From Bacilli bacterium (GTDB taxonomy: Bacteria > Bacillota_I > Bacilli_A > RF39 > UBA660): a stretch of DNA of 64,000 nt. The stretch covers positions 205,591 through 269,590 of the forward strand of contig JAFQQQ010000002.1 of NCBI GenBank assembly GCA_017410525.1, given 5' to 3'. Shown piece after piece: positions 3,560 to 64,000 of this stretch; positions within the stretch are counted from its first letter, which is position 1; each line of letters starts with the position of its first letter. The notes beneath the pieces were generated by a model. The model searched no databases and was not told the DNA's origin. It saw only the letters and a program-made list of their open reading frames with translations. A program made the position numbers and the translations under genes.

Positions 3560-3641
3560 TGTTAAACCACTATTTTTTTCTATTTATCAATTGATATTAA
3601 CTCTTTTCTATGATAAAATTAATAAAGAATGAAGGTGTATT

Positions 3642-4163
3642 ATGGAAGTTTATGTACCAGATATTTATCAAGAAAATATATATAAATTAAATTATGAAAC
3701 TCTACTTTCTAGGGGGATTAAATGCTTGTTTTTTGATTTAGATAATACTATAGCTAAAGTTAAAGATACAATGCCTAAAGATGCTGTAAAAGAATTATTT
3801 GATAATTTAAAAAGAAAAGGTTTTAAAATACTTATTACTTCTAATAGTATTAAGGCTAGGGTAAAACCATTTGCAGAAGAATTGAAAGTAGATTATATAT
3901 CAAGTTGTAAGAAACCTAATATAGAAAAAATAGATGAGTTTATAAAAAATAGTAAATTTGGATTAGATGAGATAGCTATAATAGGGGACTCTATGATGGA
4001 TGATGTAGTATGTGGAAACACAATAGGTATAACTACTGTACTATTAGATCAAATGAGTAAAATGGAATTTCCTATTGCTCGTTTAAAAAGAATTAAAGAA
4101 AAAAGAATACAAAAAAAATTAAGAGATAAAAATCTGTTTACTAAAGGAAGATATTATGTCTAA
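3642..4163 (+). CDS. yqeG: YqeG-family HAD phosphatase
   Basis: FFDLDNTI (HAD motif I), ITSNS, GDSMMDD. Sits immediately upstream of yqeH, as in Bacillus. Confidence 0.8.
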   Translation: MEVYVPDIYQENIYKLNYETLLSRGIKCLFFDLDNTIAKVKDTMPKDAVKELFDNLKRKGFKILITSNSIKARVKPFAEELKVDYISSCKKPNIEKIDEFIKNSKFGLDEIAIIGDSMMDDVVCGNTIGITTVLLDQMSKMEFPIARLKRIKEKRIQKKLRDKNLFTKGRYYV

Positions 4164-55763: not shown

Positions 55764-55806
55764 AAGACTAAGATGACTTATAGTTGCAAATCTTAGTCTT
55801 TTTTGT
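55764..55806 (+). terminator. Strong intrinsic terminator about 125 nt downstream of ppdK
   Basis: AAGACTAAGAT (55764-55774) pairs with ATCTTAGTCTT (55790-55800), followed by TTTTGT. Confidence 0.7.
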
Positions 55807-55839
55807 GCTTTGTGCGACAAGAATTTGGAGGTATTAAAA

Positions 55840-56301
55840 ATGCGATTATTGTACACTAAACCAGAATTAAAAGATTTATCCCAAGGATCAAGAATAGCGT
55901 TTGTCAGACAATTTAGATTGATGACACAAGATGAAGTATCGGATAAATTAGGATTAACAGGTGAATGTAAAAGAAGAACAATGACAAGATATGAGAAGGG
56001 AGAAAGAAATCCAAAAGATGATAGAACTTATGAATTATCTAAAATATTAAAAGTTAATTACAATGCAATAAAAAAATATGATTTCAAAGATCAATCAGAT
56101 ATACTTTATACTTTAATGTGGTTAGAAGAGTTGCTTCCTCGTTACCAAATAGATTTATCGAGAATACCAAGCATTAATGATGATAATATCATTAAATTTA
56201 AAGAATTCATCAATGAATGGGAAGAAATGAGGACAAAAAGATTTAAAAGAGAAATTTCTTACGAGCAATATGTTGAATGGAAGTTAAATTTAGAGGTGTA
56301 G
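55840..56301 (+). CDS. XRE-type HTH domain protein
   Basis: IAFVRQFRLMTQDEVSDKLGL...MTRYEKGERNP. ATG at 55840 preferred (GGAGGT RBS). Confidence 0.65.
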   Translation: MRLLYTKPELKDLSQGSRIAFVRQFRLMTQDEVSDKLGLTGECKRRTMTRYEKGERNPKDDRTYELSKILKVNYNAIKKYDFKDQSDILYTLMWLEELLPRYQIDLSRIPSINDDNIIKFKEFINEWEEMRTKRFKREISYEQYVEWKLNLEV

Positions 56302-56305
56302 TAGT

Positions 56306-57166
56306 ATGTTAGAAAAAATAGATTTGTTAAAAATTGATGGTTTTAAAAATCATCCTTATAAAGTTAATGATGATGAATCTTTAAAAGAACTTGCAAGTAG
56401 TATTAAAGAAAATGGATTGCTGAATCCTTTAATAGTAAGATTAAAGTCAAATGGTAGATATGAACTAATATCAGGACATAGAAGAAAAAAAGCAATGGAG
56501 TCAATAGGAATATCAGAAGCGGAAGTATATGTAAAAAAATTGTCTGACGAAGAAGCTACGATAGAAATGGTTGATTCTAATATGTACAGAGAAAAAGTTT
56601 TACCATCAGAAAAAGCGTTTGCATATAAAATGAAATTAGAAGCATTAAAGCATCAAGGTAAATCTTTGTCCCCTAAGGGAACTAAATCTCATACGGTAGA
56701 TGAAATAGATGATACAAAAACTCAAATTTATAGATATGTAAGATTGACTTATTTAATCCCAGAATTATTACAATTAGTTGATGATACTGTTTTAAAGGAC
56801 AAAAGAGCAGTTTTAACGATGGGTTTAAAACCAGCGGTAGAATTATCATATTTAACAAAAGAAGAGCAAAAATTGGTATATATGGGGATTACATACGAGG
56901 ATTTAACTCCAAGTCATGCTCAAACAATAGAAATAAGAAAATTAAGTAAATCAAAAAAATTGGATTTTAATAGTTTAGAAGATATTTTATGTCAAAAAAA
57001 AGGAAATCAAAACGATCAAATATCATTTAATAAAGATAAAATAGAATCGGTTTTACCAACAGAATTATTGAAAAGAGATAAAAGATATATTGAACGATAT
57101 ATAATAAAAGCAATTATAGAGTATAAAAAAATGAAAATTGTTGAAGAAGATGAATTGGATTTTTAA
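56306..57166 (+). CDS. ParB/Srx-fold N-terminal domain protein (ParB-like nuclease family)
   Basis: NPLIVRLKSNGRYELISGHRRKKAM (ParB box GxRR) followed by a helical C-terminus. Confidence 0.75.
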   Translation: MLEKIDLLKIDGFKNHPYKVNDDESLKELASSIKENGLLNPLIVRLKSNGRYELISGHRRKKAMESIGISEAEVYVKKLSDEEATIEMVDSNMYREKVLPSEKAFAYKMKLEALKHQGKSLSPKGTKSHTVDEIDDTKTQIYRYVRLTYLIPELLQLVDDTVLKDKRAVLTMGLKPAVELSYLTKEEQKLVYMGITYEDLTPSHAQTIEIRKLSKSKKLDFNSLEDILCQKKGNQNDQISFNKDKIESVLPTELLKRDKRYIERYIIKAIIEYKKMKIVEEDELDF

Positions 57167-57190
57167 ATAAAGTAAAGAAAGGGTGATAAT

Positions 57191-58015
57191 ATGGTTTTTA
57201 AGGTGGAAAAAAATAAGAATTATACAGTAATGAGTAATTACCATTTGAGAGATAAAAACTTATCTTTGAAAGCAAAAGGCTTATTATCATTTATGCTTAG
57301 TTTACCAGATGATTGGGATTACTCATTAAATGGTTTATGTTCTATATGTAAAGAATCTGAAGGAGCAATAAAAAGTACATTAAAAGAGTTAAAAGATAAT
57401 GGATATTTGGTTATAGAAAAAGTACGAGGGGAAAAGGGATATTTTGAATATAACTATATTATTTATGAACATCCATATACATTAGAAAAGGAGAAAAACA
57501 ATCCAGAGGGTAAAAATCCACCTGTGGATTATCCAATGGTGGAAAATCATACCCAAATAAATACTAATGAACAAAGTATTAAAGAACAAATAGATAGAAT
57601 AGATAAAACCATAAATGAAGATGAGGAAAAAATTTCTTCATCTTTTTCTTTAGAAGAACATCACGCTATAACTAAAGATTTAGTTGAAAGAGAATATTTA
57701 GCAGAAGATGATGTAGAACTATACAAGTATGATAAATTTTTTAAGGAAATTTTAAAAAAACAAAAATTTACTGATGTAATTTCTATAACTCACTATATTA
57801 TTTCTAGTGTTAAAAGTCGGCATTTTATAGATGAGTTTGATAATAAGATAGAGAATAAATTTGGATATTTAAAAACATCAATTGAAAATAATATTGAAAT
57901 GTTTAAAAGACGTGAAATAGAATGGGATGATGAATTAGGATGGTTTAGGGAAGTGGATAACGATGATAAAGAATTAGATTCTTTTTATGACGATTTTGAT
58001 TATGAAATAACATAA
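57191..58015 (+). CDS. Replication-initiator-like winged-helix protein (HTH_36/RepA_N-like N-terminus)
   Basis: YTVMSNYHLRDKNLSLKAKGLLSFMLSLPDDWDYSLNGL...LKELKDNGYLVIEKVR matches the pattern common in element-borne Rep/DnaD-like proteins. The family name is from memory. Confidence 0.6.
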   Translation: MVFKVEKNKNYTVMSNYHLRDKNLSLKAKGLLSFMLSLPDDWDYSLNGLCSICKESEGAIKSTLKELKDNGYLVIEKVRGEKGYFEYNYIIYEHPYTLEKEKNNPEGKNPPVDYPMVENHTQINTNEQSIKEQIDRIDKTINEDEEKISSSFSLEEHHAITKDLVEREYLAEDDVELYKYDKFFKEILKKQKFTDVISITHYIISSVKSRHFIDEFDNKIENKFGYLKTSIENNIEMFKRREIEWDDELGWFREVDNDDKELDSFYDDFDYEIT

Positions 58016-58046
58016 AAAAAGACTAAAATCAGTCTTTAGGAATATG

Positions 58047-58445
58047 TTACTTCTCAATCAATTTTTCGGCAAAACTATGTAGCATTTCAAGGTTTATATC
58101 GCTTAAATTTTTTGCGATTTCAAATATGCTATATAAATTTGAATTTTTTCTGATAATGATGGCATCAACATTTTTTAAGTCATCTTCAGAAAATGTACTT
58201 CCAGTCTGGTTAAATATAGCTTCTTTTAATTGAAAAGAATCTCTAAAACCTAAACCTTTACTAATTTTTTTTAATGTTATACTGCTTATGTTACCGCTAT
58301 GCTTTTTAGACTCTAAATCATTAATTACCATTCTTGAAATTTCGCATTTATCTGCAAATTCTCTAGCACTCATCGTTGGATGAAATGATTTACGATAATT
58401 ATTAATGTAAGAGCCAAGTGCATCTACAAATGCTTTGTCTTCCAT
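58047..58445 (-). CDS. XRE-family HTH regulator (divergent from the downstream + strand genes)
   Basis: MSAREFADKCEISRMVINDLESKK HTH. A minus-strand gene facing a 436-bp divergent control region. Confidence 0.65.
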   Translation of the reverse strand: MEDKAFVDALGSYINNYRKSFHPTMSAREFADKCEISRMVINDLESKKHSGNISSITLKKISKGLGFRDSFQLKEAIFNQTGSTFSEDDLKNVDAIIIRKNSNLYSIFEIAKNLSDINLEMLHSFAEKLIEK

Positions 58446-58687
58446 ATCCTATCGCCTTTCTTTTGTTCTTTTACTACATTACCATTTTACACTTTTTTTG
58501 AATTTTTGTCCACATAACGCTATGAAATTCATTTTTAAAAAATTAAATTATGAAAATGGACATTTTTAATATTATTTGTTATGATAATAATGTAGTAAAT
58601 AGTCTTTAAAAAAATATGGGAGGATAGAAATGTTTAAATCAAAACTTGTGATGCTTTCATTTCTGACCAAAGAAAGGAGGAGCAAGA

Positions 58688-58855
58688 TTGCAAGAGCAAG
58701 AAGGTTCTAATGTTGTTAAAAGCATCAAGATTGAAGTGATAAGTGGGGAAAAAAAAGGTGTAAACTTATTAACGCAGTTTAGTGAGGTAGAAACAATTAG
58801 AATATTAAAGCAGTGTCTTATATCGTTAGAAAGGGAGGCATCACAAAACCAGTAG
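58688..58855 (+). CDS. Possible small ORF (55 aa, TTG start)
   Basis: My translation is MQEQEGSNVVKSIKIEVISGEKKGVNLLTQFSEVETIRILKQCLISLEREASQNQ, with RBS AAAGGAGGAGCAAGA. A competing 26-codon ATG ORF (58630-58710, RBS GGGAGGA) overlaps it. Confidence 0.35.
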   Translation: MQEQEGSNVVKSIKIEVISGEKKGVNLLTQFSEVETIRILKQCLISLEREASQNQ

Positions 58856-58881
58856 TACCGATTAAGGAAGGAAAATGATAT

Positions 58882-59193
58882 ATGACTAAAGAAAGTAATG
58901 AAGTAGTATCAGAAGTAAATGCAGTAATTAGTAGTATTAGAAGTAAGGTTCAACAAGAAGAAAAAATTACAGTAGATGAAATTGATAATTTATCTACTAC
59001 TGTTAATCAACTAATCACTGATTATAGAACAGTATTAAATGACTATCTTGTAATGAACTCTTTAGCAGTAAAACATGATAAGTTTTTAGAAGTAATTGGT
59101 ATTATAGAATTTGCTTCTGCAAATGATGTTAGAATTTTAGATCAAACAATTAAATCCTTAGAAAAGGTTGTTAAAACAATAAAGCAGAGGTAA
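58882..59193 (+). CDS. Hypothetical helical protein
   Basis: 103-aa ORF with RBS AAGGAAGGAA. Terminator ACTGTGTGGA/TCTACACAGT plus T-run at about 59203-59238. Confidence 0.55.
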   Translation: MTKESNEVVSEVNAVISSIRSKVQQEEKITVDEIDNLSTTVNQLITDYRTVLNDYLVMNSLAVKHDKFLEVIGIIEFASANDVRILDQTIKSLEKVVKTIKQR

Positions 59194-59282
59194 ATAAAAT
59201 ATACTGTGTGGAAAAAAATTCTACACAGTTTTATTTTTGGATATTGACATTTATAAAAAAATAATGTATCCTTTTATTGTAA

Positions 59283-59302
59283 GTGGCAGTTCAAACTGAC
59301 AC
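59283..59302. repeat. Palindrome-containing site, left member of an inverted pair
   Basis: GTGGCAGTTCAAACTGACAC matches the reverse complement of 59520-59539 at 18 of 20 positions. It is embedded in a 10-bp outer inverted repeat, CTTTTATTGT (59271-59280) / ACAATAAAAG (59301-59310). Confidence 0.75.
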
Positions 59303-59519
59303 AATAAAAGAAGGAGGGGATTGAAAAATTTGTAATAGGAGAGAGGTATAGAGTTTTTAATGAAGTATCCGAAAATCATGGAAACTATCTCACAATTATC
59401 AACATAAATAAAGACTTAATATATTATTTATTTGATGGTAGCGATCAGGTTCAATGTTTTTCAAGTAGTAGTGAATTTGCAGTTGACCTTATTAAGTTGG
59501 TCTAATTTTTTTAAAATAA

Positions 59520-59539
59520 CTGTCAGTTTGAACTGACAC
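59520..59539. repeat. Palindrome-containing site, right member, just upstream of the 59553 ORF RBS
   Basis: CTGTCAGTTTGAACTGACAC. The core GTCAGTTTGAACTGAC is a perfect 16-bp palindrome. Confidence 0.75.
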
Positions 59540-59552
59540 GAAAGGAACTACG

Positions 59553-59813
59553 ATGAAAAAAATTAAGAAAGAAAGATCAGTACCAAAATGGGTTTTACGA
59601 AATCTACGATTGTATGGGAATTGTTGTTGTGGATACGATTTAATAAAAAAATATGGTGAAAAGAAATTATTAGAAAAATTAGTTAAATTTGGATTTGAAT
59701 GTAGTTTAAGAGTTGTACCAGATCCAGATGCAAGAACAAGAAGAAAAATGAAATATCCACCATCAGCTTACTATATTTTAGAAGTTGATAAGGTACTGAT
59801 TACTAACAAATAA
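59553..59813 (+). CDS. Hypothetical 86-aa protein in the antitoxin position upstream of MazF
   Basis: MKKIKKERSVPKWVLRNLRLYGNCCCGYDLIKKYGEKKLLEKLVKFGFECSLRVVPDPDARTRRKMKY... Its stop TAA (59811-59813) abuts the MazF TTG start. I can see no AbrB/RHH/MazE-like pattern. Confidence 0.55.
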   Translation: MKKIKKERSVPKWVLRNLRLYGNCCCGYDLIKKYGEKKLLEKLVKFGFECSLRVVPDPDARTRRKMKYPPSAYYILEVDKVLITNK

Positions 59814-60194
59814 TTGTTTTTATCAGTAAAGAAAGGTGAAGTTTATTTAATCGATTTGAAGGATACATATTCAAATGTCCAATGTGGGAAAAGACCTTGT
59901 TTAGTCATTCAAAACGATTATGGTAATGAATATTCACCGACAACAATAGTAGTTCCCATTACAACAAAAATTAAGAAGACTTATATGCCTGTTCATGTAG
60001 TTATTGAAAAGGGAAGTTATTCTAATAAGGATCGAGAAATGGTTTTATGTGAATGTATCTTAACAGTATCAAAAGATCAAATAATTAATCATTTAAGAAC
60101 TTTTGATGAAGATACGATGCAGAAAATTGATAAGGCTTTAGAAGTATCATTAGGAATTGGCGTGAAAGGGAGGAATCAAAAATTAAAAAGTTAA
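59814..60194 (+). CDS. mazF: MazF/PemK-family endoribonuclease toxin
   Basis: KKGEVYLIDLKDTYSNVQCGKRPCLVIQNDYGNEYSPTTIVVPITT matches the PemK signature. The TTG start is translationally coupled to the upstream ORF. Confidence 0.8.
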   Translation: MFLSVKKGEVYLIDLKDTYSNVQCGKRPCLVIQNDYGNEYSPTTIVVPITTKIKKTYMPVHVVIEKGSYSNKDREMVLCECILTVSKDQIINHLRTFDEDTMQKIDKALEVSLGIGVKGRNQKLKS

Positions 60195-60265
60195 AAGAGA
60201 CGTATAATGATATTTTTAGTAAAGGTATTGAAAATTATTGGAAGTCTGAAGGTTGTAATAGTAGG

Positions 60266-60832
60266 ATGCAAAAATACTTTAAATTTGCAAACTTACTAGA
60301 TAGTATTAATGTAGTTTTAAAATATATAATGATTATTTGTCTTAATATTATTGCAACAATGACAATTTTTAAACTATCTTCAGGAATTTATTTGACAGAA
60401 ATGGTTAAAGAAACAACAACTTTAACTGTAATGGATATTATTTTTCAACAAGGAGGCTTTATAGTTATTGGTTGTTTATATTTTGTTTTAGGGTTAAGAT
60501 ACGGAAAACGAAATAAAGACAGTTTTGGTAAGATAATGTATAAAGTTTTATATGGTATGCCAATGTATTATTTAATATATCTAAATATGTGTTTGATGGA
60601 TGGTTTAACAGGAATAATGATATTCTTAATTCTTTATTTAATTATTGTTAATATAAACTTTTTAATAAGTAAAAGAATAAAAGAGTTATATAATGTTGCA
60701 ACAGGTAATATTGGAACAGAAGAATATGAAAAAGAATTAGAAGAAGTAGATGTAGTATTTACAAAACAAGAAGTTGAAAATAAGGATAATAAAAAAGGAA
60801 GAGGAGATAAAAAATATGCAAGGAAGCGTTAA
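60266..60832 (+). CDS. Hypothetical membrane protein (about 4 TM) with a charged C-terminal tail
   Basis: Hydrophobic segments [42 protein letters not shown] and [18 protein letters not shown]. No family recognised. Confidence 0.5.
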
Positions 60833-61037
60833 ATGGTTTAGTGATAAATTAGGATATGGATTTATTGTTTGTGAAGATTTAGATGAGGAAGTATTTGTTC
60901 ATTTTAGCGAAATACAAATGGATGGATATAAGTCTTTAAAAGAAGGAGATATTGTAAGTTTTGATTATGACACAGAAGTTGGAAAAGCTAAAAATGTCAA
61001 TGTTATCAAAAATGAAAAGTTAGAAACTTCTAAGTAG
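60816..61037 (+). CDS. csp: Cold-shock protein (CspA family)
   Basis: [50 protein letters not shown] (RNP1-like KGYGFI, RNP2-like VFVHF). ATG at 60816 preferred (GGAAGAGGAG RBS). Confidence 0.85.
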
Positions 61038-61507
61038 TGAATTTTATTGGTGCAGTAGTGCATTATTCCGTTGACTGTGTAGATGAATCTAAAACAGCAG
61101 AAAACGGAAGAGAAATTTGTAGTCAGTATAGACCACTTGTAGAAAAAAGAATTAAAAGATTATTAGCAACACCAATGAACTCTGCAAGTATTGTACTTTT
61201 TACATCTGGAAATAGAAGTAAAAATTCTTTTGAAGAAAAACTAATACAAAGAGTTGCTTGGAATGATGATCAGATAACTAATTTTATGAATAACATTTTG
61301 TTATTAGAACAATATGATAAAATGGCAGGTTTATATTTGAAACTTAAATATATTTATGATAAAACTGATAAACAAATTGCAAAAAAAATGAAAGTAACAG
61401 ATAGAACTTTAAGAACTTATAAAACAAGGGCGTATTTTCAAATTGCAGTGTGGTCTAATAAAGTTGAATATATTTATAACAAAACTTTTCATTTTAATAT
61501 TGATTGA
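61037..61507 (+). CDS. Sigma-70 region-4-like HTH protein (element-type sigma/regulator)
   Basis: C-terminus KTDKQIAKKMKVTDRTLRTYKTRAYFQIA resembles a sigma region 4.2 HTH. GTG start abuts the csp stop. Confidence 0.5.
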   Translation: MNFIGAVVHYSVDCVDESKTAENGREICSQYRPLVEKRIKRLLATPMNSASIVLFTSGNRSKNSFEEKLIQRVAWNDDQITNFMNNILLLEQYDKMAGLYLKLKYIYDKTDKQIAKKMKVTDRTLRTYKTRAYFQIAVWSNKVEYIYNKTFHFNID

Positions 61508-61563
61508 TATATTTGATGTGGAAATATCCACATCCTGCTACATACAAAGGAGTTGAATATTTT

Positions 61564-62712
61564 ATGAAAAAAAGAAATATTTTAATTATTAGTGCATTAA
61601 TAGTAGTATTAGTATCTATTGGTATATATTTATTTATACAACATACAAATAAAATAACTTTAAAGGAATCTAATTTTATTTTTGAACTTGGGGATAAAGT
61701 TCCTTTTGAAGTTGAATATTATTTAAAAGATAAGGATAAAGATAAAATATCAAATTCAAAAATAAGATTTGAAAATGATGCAATGTTTGATACTTCAAAC
61801 AATGAAATTAGAACAATAGATTCAAAGTTTTTAGATGTTGGAAAATATAAAATGTATATTGAGTATAAGGATACTAAGTATCACTTTAATATTAAAGTGA
61901 AAGATACAACAGCACCTAATTTTATTGATTTTATGGATGAAATTATATTAGAACAAAATGCTGTAAATGTAGATTTGTTAAAATATTATGAAGCATCTGA
62001 TTTAAGTAGTTTAACGATAAGCATTGAAAGTGATTATGATATTGAAAAAACTGGTGAATATAAAGCAATAATTAAATCTAAAGATGTTTATGATAATATA
62101 GTTACAAAAGATGCAACAATTAAAGTAATTTCTTATGATGATTTAAAAAATACAGAAGTAACGAAATGCTTAGATGGTACAATATTTAAAAGTGAAAAAA
62201 GAATTGAATCAGAAAAGAAAAAAATAGAAACTAATCAATCTAGTTCTAATAATAATACAACCCCTAAAATAGAAATAGTTGATAATAACAACAATAGTAA
62301 TAATTCAAAGAATGAATCAAATAACAATAGTTCTAGTTCATCATCTAATAATACTCCAACTATTGTTAATGCTACATATAGAACAGATATTTCAAATGAA
62401 ATAGTAAATAAGATAAATGAATATCGTAAAAATAATGGTCAAACTGTGTTACCTGTAACTTCTGAAGCACAAGCTGAAGCTGACAGGAGAGCAAAGGAAA
62501 TTGTATCAAATCCTACTCATGAAGGTTCTTCTTATGGTTTTGGGGAAAATATAGGTGGAGGAGGAATTGGTACTGATTTCTTCACATTATGGAAAGAAAG
62601 TTTTTCCCACAATAACGCAATGTTAAGAGAGCAAAATACAGCAATAGCAGTAAGTATATATCAATATAATAATCAATGGTATGCAGTTGCTGTTTTTAGA
62701 ATGAATTATTAA
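61564..62712 (+). CDS. Membrane-anchored secreted protein with a C-terminal CAP/SCP (YkwD-like) domain
   Basis: N-terminal TM (ILIISALIVVLVSIGIYLFI), a middle beta-rich region, an Asn/Ser low-complexity linker, then YRKNNG...AEADRRAKEI...HEGS...GENIG...WKESFSHNNAML. ATG at 61564 preferred (AAGGAG RBS). Confidence 0.7.
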   Translation: MKKRNILIISALIVVLVSIGIYLFIQHTNKITLKESNFIFELGDKVPFEVEYYLKDKDKDKISNSKIRFENDAMFDTSNNEIRTIDSKFLDVGKYKMYIEYKDTKYHFNIKVKDTTAPNFIDFMDEIILEQNAVNVDLLKYYEASDLSSLTISIESDYDIEKTGEYKAIIKSKDVYDNIVTKDATIKVISYDDLKNTEVTKCLDGTIFKSEKRIESEKKKIETNQSSSNNNTTPKIEIVDNNNNSNNSKNESNNNSSSSSSNNTPTIVNATYRTDISNEIVNKINEYRKNNGQTVLPVTSEAQAEADRRAKEIVSNPTHEGSSYGFGENIGGGGIGTDFFTLWKESFSHNNAMLREQNTAIAVSIYQYNNQWYAVAVFRMNY

Positions 62713-62747
62713 AATTTCTCAATATGGGAAATTTTTTTATGCAAGAA

Positions 62748-62769
62748 ATTATGTGGAATTCCACATAAT
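62748..62769. repeat. Perfect 22-bp palindrome ATTATGTGGAATTCCACATAAT
   Basis: Read directly and self-complementary over 62748-62769. Half-site TTATGTGGAA recurs at 62792-62806 and, inverted, at 62844-62858. Confidence 0.85.
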
Positions 62770-62791
62770 ATTTTTTATGTAGAACTTTTAG

Positions 62792-62858
62792 TTATGTGGA
62801 ACTTTTATAAAAAACATCTTGTAATTAAGGCGTTTCTATTATAAAAAGTTCCACATAA
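62792..62858. repeat. 15-bp perfect inverted repeat pair TTATGTGGAACTTTT / AAAAGTTCCACATAA, 37 bp apart, abutting the recombinase gene 3' end
   Basis: 62792-62806 and 62844-62858 are exact reverse complements. Confidence 0.85.
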
Positions 62859-62865
62859 TTTTTTT

Positions 62866-63867
62866 CTATTTCATATTATTTTTCAACCAACTATCTAAAT
62901 TGTCTTTTTTAGTATTACTATATTTACTTTTAGTGTTTATCGTTTCTGAATTTCTAAGAATTTCTTGTCTTTGCTTTTTCGAATCTGGAGTTGCATATAT
63001 CTCTGTTGATGTTATTGAACTATGACCTAGAAATTCTTTAACATATAAAAGCGGAGTTCCATTATTATACAAATGTGTTGCTTTGGTATGTCTAAAACTA
63101 TGAGGATGATAATTTCCATTGAATTTATCTGGATATATTAAATTTAATTTTAAAACTATTTTTTTAATCATTTTATTAATACTATATCTTGAATATTTTT
63201 TCTTATAATTAGAATAAAATAAATAATCATCTCCATAGTTAATATAAAATTCTTTTAAATATTTATTGATTAACTTTACTAATTCTTGACTGATAGGTAC
63301 AATTCTAGTTTTATTACCTTTGCCATATAAAGTAATACTTGCATTATCAGATAAATTTAAGTCATCTAATTTAATATTTATTAATTCAGTTACTCTTGCC
63401 CCTGTTTCATAAAGTACACATATCATCGTTAATTTTTTTAAATCTTTGATACTGTTTAAATAATTTATCATTGTTTTTATTTCATTTTCTGTAAAATATG
63501 ATATCATTTTATTAGGAACCTTTTTATTCTTAATACTAAGAATTTGAGAACAAGATCCAAATAAATCAGGTTCGTTTATTTGGACATACTTGTAAAATGA
63601 TTTTATACAAGCAAGTCTTTGGTTCCTAGTTTGTATTGAAACAGTTCTATCTGTTTCTAACCAATCTAGAAATTGGATTATTACTTCCTTAGTAATTGAT
63701 TCAATTTCTATTTTATTTGGTTTAATATTTTTTTCTTTATTCATAAATTCTAACAACAAATAAAATGTAGTTGAATATGATGATTTAGTGTTCATTGAAT
63801 AATTACATTCACCAATTAAATAACTTGTAAGAAATTCTTGAACTAATTTACTAAATCTATTAGTCAC
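62866..63867 (-). CDS. Tyrosine site-specific recombinase (XerC/D / phage-integrase family)
   Basis: SAM-like N-terminal domain. ETGARVTEL (catalytic Arg context), HSFRHTKATHL (HxxR), LGHSSITSTEIYA (catalytic Tyr). GTG start. Confidence 0.85.
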   Translation of the reverse strand: MTNRFSKLVQEFLTSYLIGECNYSMNTKSSYSTTFYLLLEFMNKEKNIKPNKIEIESITKEVIIQFLDWLETDRTVSIQTRNQRLACIKSFYKYVQINEPDLFGSCSQILSIKNKKVPNKMISYFTENEIKTMINYLNSIKDLKKLTMICVLYETGARVTELINIKLDDLNLSDNASITLYGKGNKTRIVPISQELVKLINKYLKEFYINYGDDYLFYSNYKKKYSRYSINKMIKKIVLKLNLIYPDKFNGNYHPHSFRHTKATHLYNNGTPLLYVKEFLGHSSITSTEIYATPDSKKQRQEILRNSETINTKSKYSNTKKDNLDSWLKNNMK

Positions 63868-64000
63868 CTAAATCACCCCCTCATATAAACTTTTAGAAAA
63901 AGTATCATTAGCATCGATAATTTTATTTTTATTATAATCAGTAAAATGAAGATAGTATTCTGTTTCATGAATACTTTTATGTCCCATATATTTATAAAGA
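63868..64000 (-). CDS. C-terminal end of a second tyrosine recombinase (5' part beyond the window)
   Basis: My reverse-complement translation is ...LYKYMGHKSIHETEYYLHFTDYNKNKIIDANDTFSKSLYEGVI*. It shows the LGH...T..YxH catalytic-Tyr motif. The TAG stop (63868-63870) abuts the GTG of the downstream recombinase. Confidence 0.7.
   Translation of the reverse strand, partial: LYKYMGHKSIHETEYYLHFTDYNKNKIIDANDTFSKSLYEGVI

Follow-up and report, generated by a model that had tools for sequence, protein, structure and literature searches.

We studied a pair of adjacent genes on a 64,000-nucleotide stretch of DNA from a Bacilli bacterium (GTDB lineage RF39, UBA660; assembly GCA_017410525.1, contig JAFQQQ010000002.1, positions 205,591 to 269,590), referred to below as the window. 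The downstream gene encodes a toxin of the PemK/MazF family and the upstream one an 86-residue protein, here called A86, in which no known antitoxin domain was detected by the searches run. Together they constitute a real, conserved and unannotated gene pair, kept in constant order and with stop and start codons that abut or overlap. Judged from its sequence, A86-MazF is most likely a variant of the type II MazF systems residing on an undescribed mobile element of gut bacteria. We give an even chance to the idea that A86 is a MazF-neutralising partner and represents a new antitoxin family for EndoA-like MazF. That it was recruited for this role from a small domain family with other roles elsewhere belongs to the same proposal, and we hold it with equal, evenly divided confidence.

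Organization and conservation of the gene pair

The two genes and the start signal of the first one are arranged as follows.

59553..59813, forward strand: A86, the 86-aa open reading frame (ORF) and candidate MazF partner, with ATG at 59553 and TAA at 59811-59813
59814..60194, forward strand: mazF, the 126-aa PemK/MazF ORF, whose TTG start directly abuts the TAA of A86
59541..59546, forward strand: Shine-Dalgarno (SD)-like AAAGGA of A86, 6 nt 5' of the ATG, as read from the sequence

That the TTG of mazF comes immediately after the stop codon of the 86-aa ORF had been remarked in a first-pass annotation of this DNA, and the ORF coordinates agree with it. The same annotation held that mazF has neither an ATG nor an SD of its own, which stands as well. 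The earliest in-frame ATG is codon 58 by our reading of the sequence, and the sole purine-rich stretch 5' of the TTG (AAGGT) is located about 20 nt away, beyond SD range, so that mazF is left without its own SD. Start signals of the two genes differ, A86 having an AUG with an SD, where AGGA or AGGAG is kept across related loci, and mazF a UUG without one. Such a hierarchy of start codons would fit expression of the partner over the toxin.

We gathered 57 A86 loci, 16 of them from exact-protein look-ups and a reference-genome scan and 41 from a metagenome scan. In 49 of the 57, A86 and MazF are carried by a single syntenic element, the hosts being uncultured "Bacilli" or "Clostridia" metagenome-assembled genomes (MAGs) from ruminant and human gut. 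The remaining eight are accounted for by L055 and L072, whose contigs end before the MazF position, and by L061-L070, without MazF. Wherever both genes were detected (49 of 49 loci), A86 lies directly 5' of mazF, and across these loci identity to the window copies drops to 38% for A86 and 41% for MazF.

Forty junction sequences were compared, and in all 40 the start codon of mazF either overlaps the A86 stop or lies directly against it. Junctions of several kinds were observed, namely TAA directly followed by TTG (the window clade), ATGA or TTGA with a 4-nt overlap, an ATG lying 7 or 10 nt inside A86, and TGAtATG. Geometry of the junction is thus conserved while its sequence is not, which fits translation by termination and reinitiation. 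In several comparisons A86 has diverged more than MazF (38% versus 55% identity in L058, 44% versus 58% in L041). Since faster divergence is usual for antitoxins, we counted this in favour of an antitoxin role.

The toxin

The mazF product matches Pfam family PF02452 (PemK/MazF) with E=5e-26 over profile positions 1-108 of 109, and also PHROG 1936, described as 'MazF-like growth inhibitor'. Among solved structures it is closest to S. aureus MazF and B. subtilis EndoA/YdcE, with E values of about 1e-24 and about 45% identity. The Arg of its GKRPC motif and the Thr of PITT align with R25 and T48 of EndoA, which we take to be the catalytic residues, and both are conserved in the window and in all 26 distinct MazF copies. 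In domain and catalytic residues alike, the toxin side proved to be of MazEF kind in every comparison applied, and its sequence places it among PemK/MazF-family endoribonucleases, in the EndoA/NdoA-like clade. Because the PemK domain is full-length and retains the catalytic Arg and Thr, an inhibitor is to be expected.

Two cysteines distinguish MazF proteins of this element family. Cys29 (window 59898-59900), which follows the catalytic Arg-Pro in RPC, is present in 26 of 26 copies, and Cys79 (window 60048-60050), within LCE, in 25 of 26; the corresponding residues of B. subtilis EndoA are Val and Leu.

Sequence and predicted fold of A86

No match to A86 was found in Pfam, NCBIfam, PHROGs or PADLOC. 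Comparison of 33 diverse family members with Pfam yielded nothing recurrent, and the family profile, run against PDB sequences, had no match with E below 0.05. An hhalign comparison of A86 with EndoAI, which is paired with the nearest MazF so far characterised, gave a probability of 0.09%. These results rule out A86 as a known antitoxin by sequence. They uphold the claim of the first-pass annotation that the 86-aa protein has no MazE/AbrB, ribbon-helix-helix (RHH) or Phd pattern, and the sensitive profile searches, named there as able to overturn the proposal of a new family, brought up no MazE/PemI-type identity. The motifs GNCCCGYD and DPDARTRRKMKYPP, recorded at the same time, are both present, and the protein is indeed basic (isoelectric point, pI, 9.83). 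None of the known antitoxin DNA-binding folds (AbrB/SpoVT, RHH, Phd/YefM or the Xre-type helix-turn-helix, HTH) was recognised in A86, and the neighbouring small ORFs showed no canonical antitoxin domain either (AbrB, RHH, Phd or XRE-type partner).

Relatives of A86 are few. A word-seeded search of 5.8 billion proteins returned just 13 clusters like A86, and a profile search of 1.84 billion cluster representatives 59 at E<=1e-3. A second profile search gave 68 clusters, none of them with a Pfam domain, the few named ones being called "hypothetical protein". A86 belongs, on sequence grounds, to an uncharacterised family of small proteins, the signature of which reads P-x-W-[VI]-x-x-N-L-x-x-Y-G-N-C ... 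K-K-Y-G ... G-[YF]-x-C ... K-Y-P-x-x-A-x-Y-I-L-E.

The AlphaFold2 model of A86, built with 12 homologues, has a mean predicted local distance difference test (pLDDT) score of 78.6. It consists of helices at residues 12-21, 28-34 and 36-45, strands at 23-26, 48-55 and 73-81, and a basic loop at 56-72 that is modelled at lower confidence. The resulting order H1-S1-H2-H3-S2-wing-S3 matches that of a winged helix, the agreement being one in order of elements only. No significant structural neighbour of the model was found, and its superposition on known winged helices was not significant.

A86 copies linked to MazF form a clade marked by a long basic loop (RTRRKMKYPP), a short C-terminal extension and cysteines 24, 26 and 50. 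Cys26 and Cys50 occur in 25 of 25 such copies and Cys24 in 24 of 25. Other family members have lost these cysteines, and a chromosomal clade possesses a fourth one. The A86 cysteines may be core substitutions or, together with Cys29 and Cys79 of MazF, may form a common redox or metal site.

Inverted repeats and the upstream gene up61

Upstream of A86 we recognised a third small gene, up61, along with a duplicated inverted repeat and candidate transcription signals.

59203..59229, forward strand: terminator-like hairpin after the preceding 103-aa ORF, an 11-bp stem followed by a T-run
59244..59272, forward strand: promoter-like TTGACA-17-TATCCT, 10 of 12 matches in a consensus scan, a pattern match only
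59284..59301, no strand assigned: inverted repeat O1, TGGCAGTT-CA-AACTGACA, one mismatch to the O2 pattern
59320..59507, forward strand: up61, a 61-aa acidic ORF (pI 4.6) with an ATT start after the SD GAAGGAGG
59521..59538, no strand assigned: inverted repeat O2, TGTCAGTT-TG-AACTGACA, 8-bp arms and a 2-bp non-palindromic centre

The hairpin, equivalents of which are conserved in distant copies of the element, probably marks the end of the upstream transcription unit. The promoter-like sequence is a candidate promoter for an up61-A86-mazF operon, sites of this kind being no more numerous in the region than expected from shuffled sequence.

O1 is placed between the promoter-like -10 and the ribosome-binding site (RBS) of up61. 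O2 lies between the up61 stop and the A86 SD, with 2 nt from its end to the SD and 14 nt to the ATG. The perfect 16-bp palindrome that the first-pass annotation had seen before this RBS does exist; it is not a continuous 16-mer, its arms being set apart as 8+2+8 at 59521-59538. Perfect 8+8 repeats with a loop of at most 4 nt number 43 in the window, which has 26% G+C, so the O2 repeat alone is weak evidence. O1 and O2 are the sole two matches to their pattern in the 64 kb, where 0.29 would be expected. In ten related loci both copies are likewise present, about 233-242 bp apart, and share a common locus-specific sequence, for example GTGTCAGTTATAACTGACAC in L001, GTTTCCAAATATTTGGAAAC in L003, AAGTCTAATATATTAGACTT in L012 and TTTTCCAATATATTGGAAAA in L036. 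Occurrence of only two copies, together with this locus-to-locus co-variation, indicates that the repeat is more than a product of chance.

Position of O2 is kept, with varying arms, in the clade with A86 at least 58% identical. In clades where A86 identity falls below about 55%, the repeat before A86 is missing and A86-MazF are still coupled. Several loci have a third, degenerate copy in the divergent promoter region of the XRE repressor and early genes. A distant copy of the element, L052, carries another palindrome, TGTCTAC-N4-GTAGACA, twice (3623-3640 and 3732-3749) upstream of up61; it starts with the same TGTC half-site, and operator layout thus differs between clades. Identity matrices of A86, XRE, up61, the sigma-like protein and others were compared with operator classes, and all of them follow phylogeny, a confounding that makes the comparison uninformative as to the operator binder.

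The ATT start explains why up61 was absent from the ORF listing. Its homologues have Met at or beside the start codon, most copies carrying ATT, ATA or ATC there. By tblastn, up61 was found in 43 of the 49 MazF-linked loci, and it is conserved like A86. It is absent in a subclade (L048-L051 and L060) where A86-MazF persists with an ATGA overlap, leaving A86 as the only upstream candidate there; the sixth locus without detection, L071, is on a contig that ends short of the up61 position. Hence up61 is not always co-inherited with the pair, as a member of a three-component toxin-antitoxin (TA) system would be. No Pfam match was obtained for up61. Its best AlphaFold2 model (pLDDT 78.6; the other four range from 46 to 63) is a small SH3/Tudor-like barrel; its nearest structural neighbours are no antitoxins but the Tudor-like domains found in TraI, UvrD, PcrA and CarD. 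The absence of a Pfam match, the barrel-like model and the subclade without the gene lend no support to up61 as a hidden MazE/AbrB or RHH antitoxin.

The host element

The pair is part of an island of about 8 kb (window ~55800-63900) adjoining the chromosomal genes spoVAD and ppdK. The island encodes an HTH protein, a ParB_N protein, an HTH_36 replication-initiator-like protein, a divergent XRE repressor, small ORFs, up61-A86-MazF, a membrane protein, a cold-shock protein, a sigma/activator-like protein (PHROG 248) and a CAP-domain protein. Two of its further genes are these.

60182..60832, forward strand: gene of a multi-pass membrane protein, with a probable ATT start at 60182 and the SD GGGAGG at 60167-60172
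62866-63867, reverse strand: tyrosine recombinase of the island

Synteny over the 49 loci runs from Rep (HTH_36) through the XRE repressor (on the opposite strand; 58047-58445 in the window), two small ORFs, up61, A86 and MazF to the membrane protein, cold-shock protein, sigma-like activator and CAP-domain protein. It recurs in dozens of contigs from human and ruminant gut metagenomes (L001-L016, L033-L073). No close match to the element DNA was found in the INPHARED phage or PLSDB plasmid collections, tblastn with A86 against the same two collections gave no match, and scans of viral contigs with A86, MazF and three distant relatives brought up at most one phage locus, which lacks MazF. A search of the window for att direct repeats gave none that was convincing. 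The element may be a satellite, an integrative element or a defective prophage.

Started at ATT 60182, the membrane-protein gene would share its first 13 nt with the 3' end of mazF. In the ORF listing it starts at ATG 60266. Its frame is open upstream of this codon, and the N-terminus encoded there, IKKLKETYNDIF, aligns with MKKLKQFY of L049 and L060, where the membrane-protein ATG overlaps the mazF stop (ATGA); ATG was noted for L048 too, and other homologues have ATT, ATA or ATC. Translation thus probably begins at ATT 60182. Both genes flanking A86-MazF, up61 and the membrane-protein gene, have rare AUU-type starts across the element family, a feature that could render their translation sensitive to initiation factor 3.

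Two individual copies deserve mention. In L001 (1829-3403), an IS66-family transposase is inserted between the 103-aa ORF and up61, with both operators and A86-MazF intact. L004 (JAGBBT010000027.1) is a 97-100% identical copy of the element on a 3.9-kb contig assigned to a 'Treponema sp.' MAG. All other copies sit in Bacilli or Clostridia MAGs, and the Treponema assignment is probably a binning error, or else reflects transfer between phyla.

Alternative explanations

Several observations weigh against A86 as a dedicated MazF antitoxin. Relatives at 33-43% identity are single-copy core chromosomal genes without MazF in Dubosiella, Faecalicoccus, Absicoccus and related Erysipelotrichaceae (L017-L028, L030-L032, L069). 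There they occupy position X in the context ldh-htrA-[Lys/Ala-rich 390-510-aa protein]-X-icd-gltA-acn and display four conserved cysteines (in QCL, NCAC and YPCE) and an acidic C-terminal tail. One relative resides in an integrase-bearing region without MazF, and phage contig L074 (2719-3156) encodes the A86 domain behind a Cys-rich N-terminus, again without MazF. In four larger proteins the domain is C-terminal: P0031 and P0037 (both with a Phage_pRha N-terminus), P0047 (with an XRE-type HTH) and P0057, the N-terminal extension of which has no Pfam match. These fusions suggest that the A86 domain is a transferable module for regulation or interaction; those with Rha and XRE are as compatible with a role in regulation or oligomerisation as with toxin binding. 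A86 and MazF (pI 8.85) are both basic, and the A86 model is compact, without a long disordered C-terminal tail, so that as modelled it bears no resemblance to the acidic tails by which MazE and EndoAI mimic RNA. Every MazF-linked A86 copy sits in the same element family, which makes a single origin of the association probable; the linkage may go back to one ancestral arrangement and not to repeated selection for pairing. Overlaps are also usual along the operon (MazF/membrane protein, cold-shock domain protein/sigma-like, sigma-like/CAP), and stop/start coupling is therefore not specific to a toxin-antitoxin pair. Whether A86-type proteins regularly precede MazF, a question raised by the first-pass annotation, thus has a divided answer: they do in 49 of 49 loci of the element family, and distant relatives lack MazF. 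Its suggestion of a novel antitoxin family fares similarly, being favoured by an unclassified partner in a conserved, coupled pairing and weakened by the probably single origin and the generic coupling.

In a different explanation, A86 is a regulator of the operon or a nucleic-acid binder, perhaps recognising O1/O2, and does not inhibit MazF. The toxin would then be silenced mainly by the divergent XRE-type repressor and, upon induction of the element, act as an effector of growth inhibition or abortive infection, like the MazF-like morons of phages. We regard this as rather unlikely, if worth serious attention. It would account for the family members without MazF in chromosomes and phage regions, for the fusions to Rha and XRE regulators, for the locus-specific operator-like repeats right before the RBSs of up61 and A86, and for the place of the operon downstream of a cI/Cro-like divergent switch, in which a 55-aa protein takes the Cro position; phage MazF homologues of PHROG 1936 are annotated as stand-alone growth inhibitors, and coupling is generic in the operon. 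A catalytically intact EndoA-like MazF without an inhibitor would, however, be hazardous under leaky expression. Moreover, the predicted third (recognition) helix of A86 is highly conserved throughout the family, chromosomal members included, while operators differ, which argues against this helix setting operator specificity, and the O2 repeat is absent in clades that keep A86-MazF coupling.

Division of labour among three components is improbable in our estimate: up61 would be the MazF-neutralising antitoxin or a necessary co-factor, and A86 the DNA-binding regulator, following a logic like that of omega-epsilon-zeta or paaR-paaA-parE. The acidic up61 is conserved equally to A86, shares the predicted transcription unit and is flanked by both operator copies, and A86 resembles a DNA binder more than an RNA-mimicking inhibitor. 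Against these points stand the loci that have dispensed with up61 and kept A86-MazF, the position of up61, with A86 between it and mazF and a 45-nt spacer between it and A86, and the generic, mostly low-confidence barrel model with neighbours other than antitoxins. A further explanation, slightly less probable still, concerns the palindromes only and is separate from the question of the proteins. The repeats would be RNA hairpins on either side of up61, acting as 5'/3' stabilisers of the mRNA or as sites of its processing, and would determine how much up61 message there is relative to that of A86-MazF. Both copies do fall within the predicted transcript, each immediately ahead of a ribosome-binding site, and pairing is kept while arm sequence changes between loci. 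But the hairpins are predicted to be weak (folding energies -6.3 and -7.9 kcal/mol, z-scores versus shuffles -1.15 and -1.79), Rfam contains no family matching the repeats, and the third copy of several loci lies in a non-transcribed divergent promoter region. Perfect loop-less 20-bp palindromes, typical of dimeric-protein sites, are found in L001, L003, L012 and L036, and copies within a locus have the same sequence, beyond mere ability to pair. Loop-less palindromes, identical within-locus copies and weak RNA hairpins all favour O1/O2 as a putative DNA operator of a dimeric element-encoded protein.

Discussion

Returning to A86 as the MazF-neutralising partner, we propose the following course of events. 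Transcription would start from the 59244-59272 site and proceed through up61, A86, mazF and downstream genes. A86 would be translated from its own SD and AUG, and mazF, with no SD and a UUG abutting the A86 stop, would be made mainly by ribosomes that have just finished A86. Such dependence would keep the toxin at or below the level of its partner. A86 would bind the MazF dimer and block RNA cleavage. Upon loss of the element or a change in its expression, A86, if the less stable of the two, would free MazF and growth arrest would follow, serving maintenance of the element or abortive infection. O1/O2 would be operators of an element-encoded DNA-binding protein that sets operon expression, either A86 with or without MazF, or the XRE repressor.

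A more speculative variant, to which we attach little probability, is that the A86 domain is a new Cys-bearing small fold and transferable control module, employed here as gatekeeper of MazF. Its CxC...C site, possibly together with Cys29 and Cys79 of MazF, would sense a redox, metal or phage signal and release the toxin, an idea we hold just as loosely. Alternatively, the domain might bind DNA through a new fold, its specificity co-evolving at a rapid pace with the 18-20-bp operators.

Among the closest characterised systems are EndoAI-EndoA (ndoAI-ndoA) of B. subtilis and other Bacillus and MazEF of S. aureus, with toxins of the same clade, each preceded directly by a small gene of like orientation; the annotation of the canonical pair in B. 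thuringiensis is EndoAI-NdoA. A86 is unrelated to EndoAI, has no RHH or MazE match in Pfam, is basic instead of acidic and is predicted to be compact, without a toxin-wrapping tail. MazE-MazF of E. coli, PemI-PemK and Kis-Kid likewise combine a PemK-fold toxin with an upstream partner and a palindrome near promoter and RBS. Canonical MazEF-type systems are autoregulated via palindromic operators, and in MazE, PemI and Kis the N-terminus is a swapped-hairpin DNA-binding domain of AbrB/SpoVT type and the C-terminus is acidic and disordered (PMC4803016), neither of which is seen in A86. In omega-epsilon-zeta and paaR2-paaA2-parE2, a third small conserved gene is found, as up61 is here, along with operator-like repeats; by comparison with these three-gene TA operons, gene order in our element would be atypical and up61 is dispensable in one subclade.

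MrpC of Myxococcus xanthus is a CRP-family factor with a winged helix. This transcription factor, unrelated to MazE, has been reported to neutralise the solitary MazF-mx (PMC4803016). It is a global regulator of large size, and 4.44 Mb separate its gene from mazF-mx, whereas A86 has 86 residues and is encoded directly upstream of its toxin, in translational coupling; that MrpC and A86 are related in sequence is not to be expected. Makarova et al. counted among neighbours of MazF 107 AbrB, 81 RHH and 29 members of the uncharacterised XF1863 family (PMC2701414). XF1863 proteins are likewise small and uncharacterised and were proposed as MazF antitoxins from adjacency (Makarova, Wolf and Koonin 2009; PMC2701414). 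They are described from Proteobacteria, Chlorobi and Bacteroidetes with a predicted strand-helix-helix, RHH-like structure (PMC2701414), and this description sets them apart from A86, known from gut Bacillota MAGs and predicted as helix-strand-helix-helix-strand-strand. XF1863 and MrpC thus provide precedent for MazF partners other than MazE.

MazF genes following "hypothetical" proteins unrelated to A86 are easily found on annotated Bacillota plasmids. Unannotated MazF partners are thus not rare there, new antitoxin families are reported regularly, and in this respect the gain is incremental. As none of Pfam, NCBIfam, PHROGs and PADLOC contains the A86 family, current TA and defence finders would call this MazF an orphan. 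The host element, itself undescribed, is common in human and ruminant gut metagenomes, and its co-varying operators offer a handle for studying how it is regulated. Should A86 neutralise MazF, it would constitute a structurally new antitoxin family for a classic toxin, basic, compact and with conserved cysteines, and would represent a different way of blocking an EndoA-like RNase.

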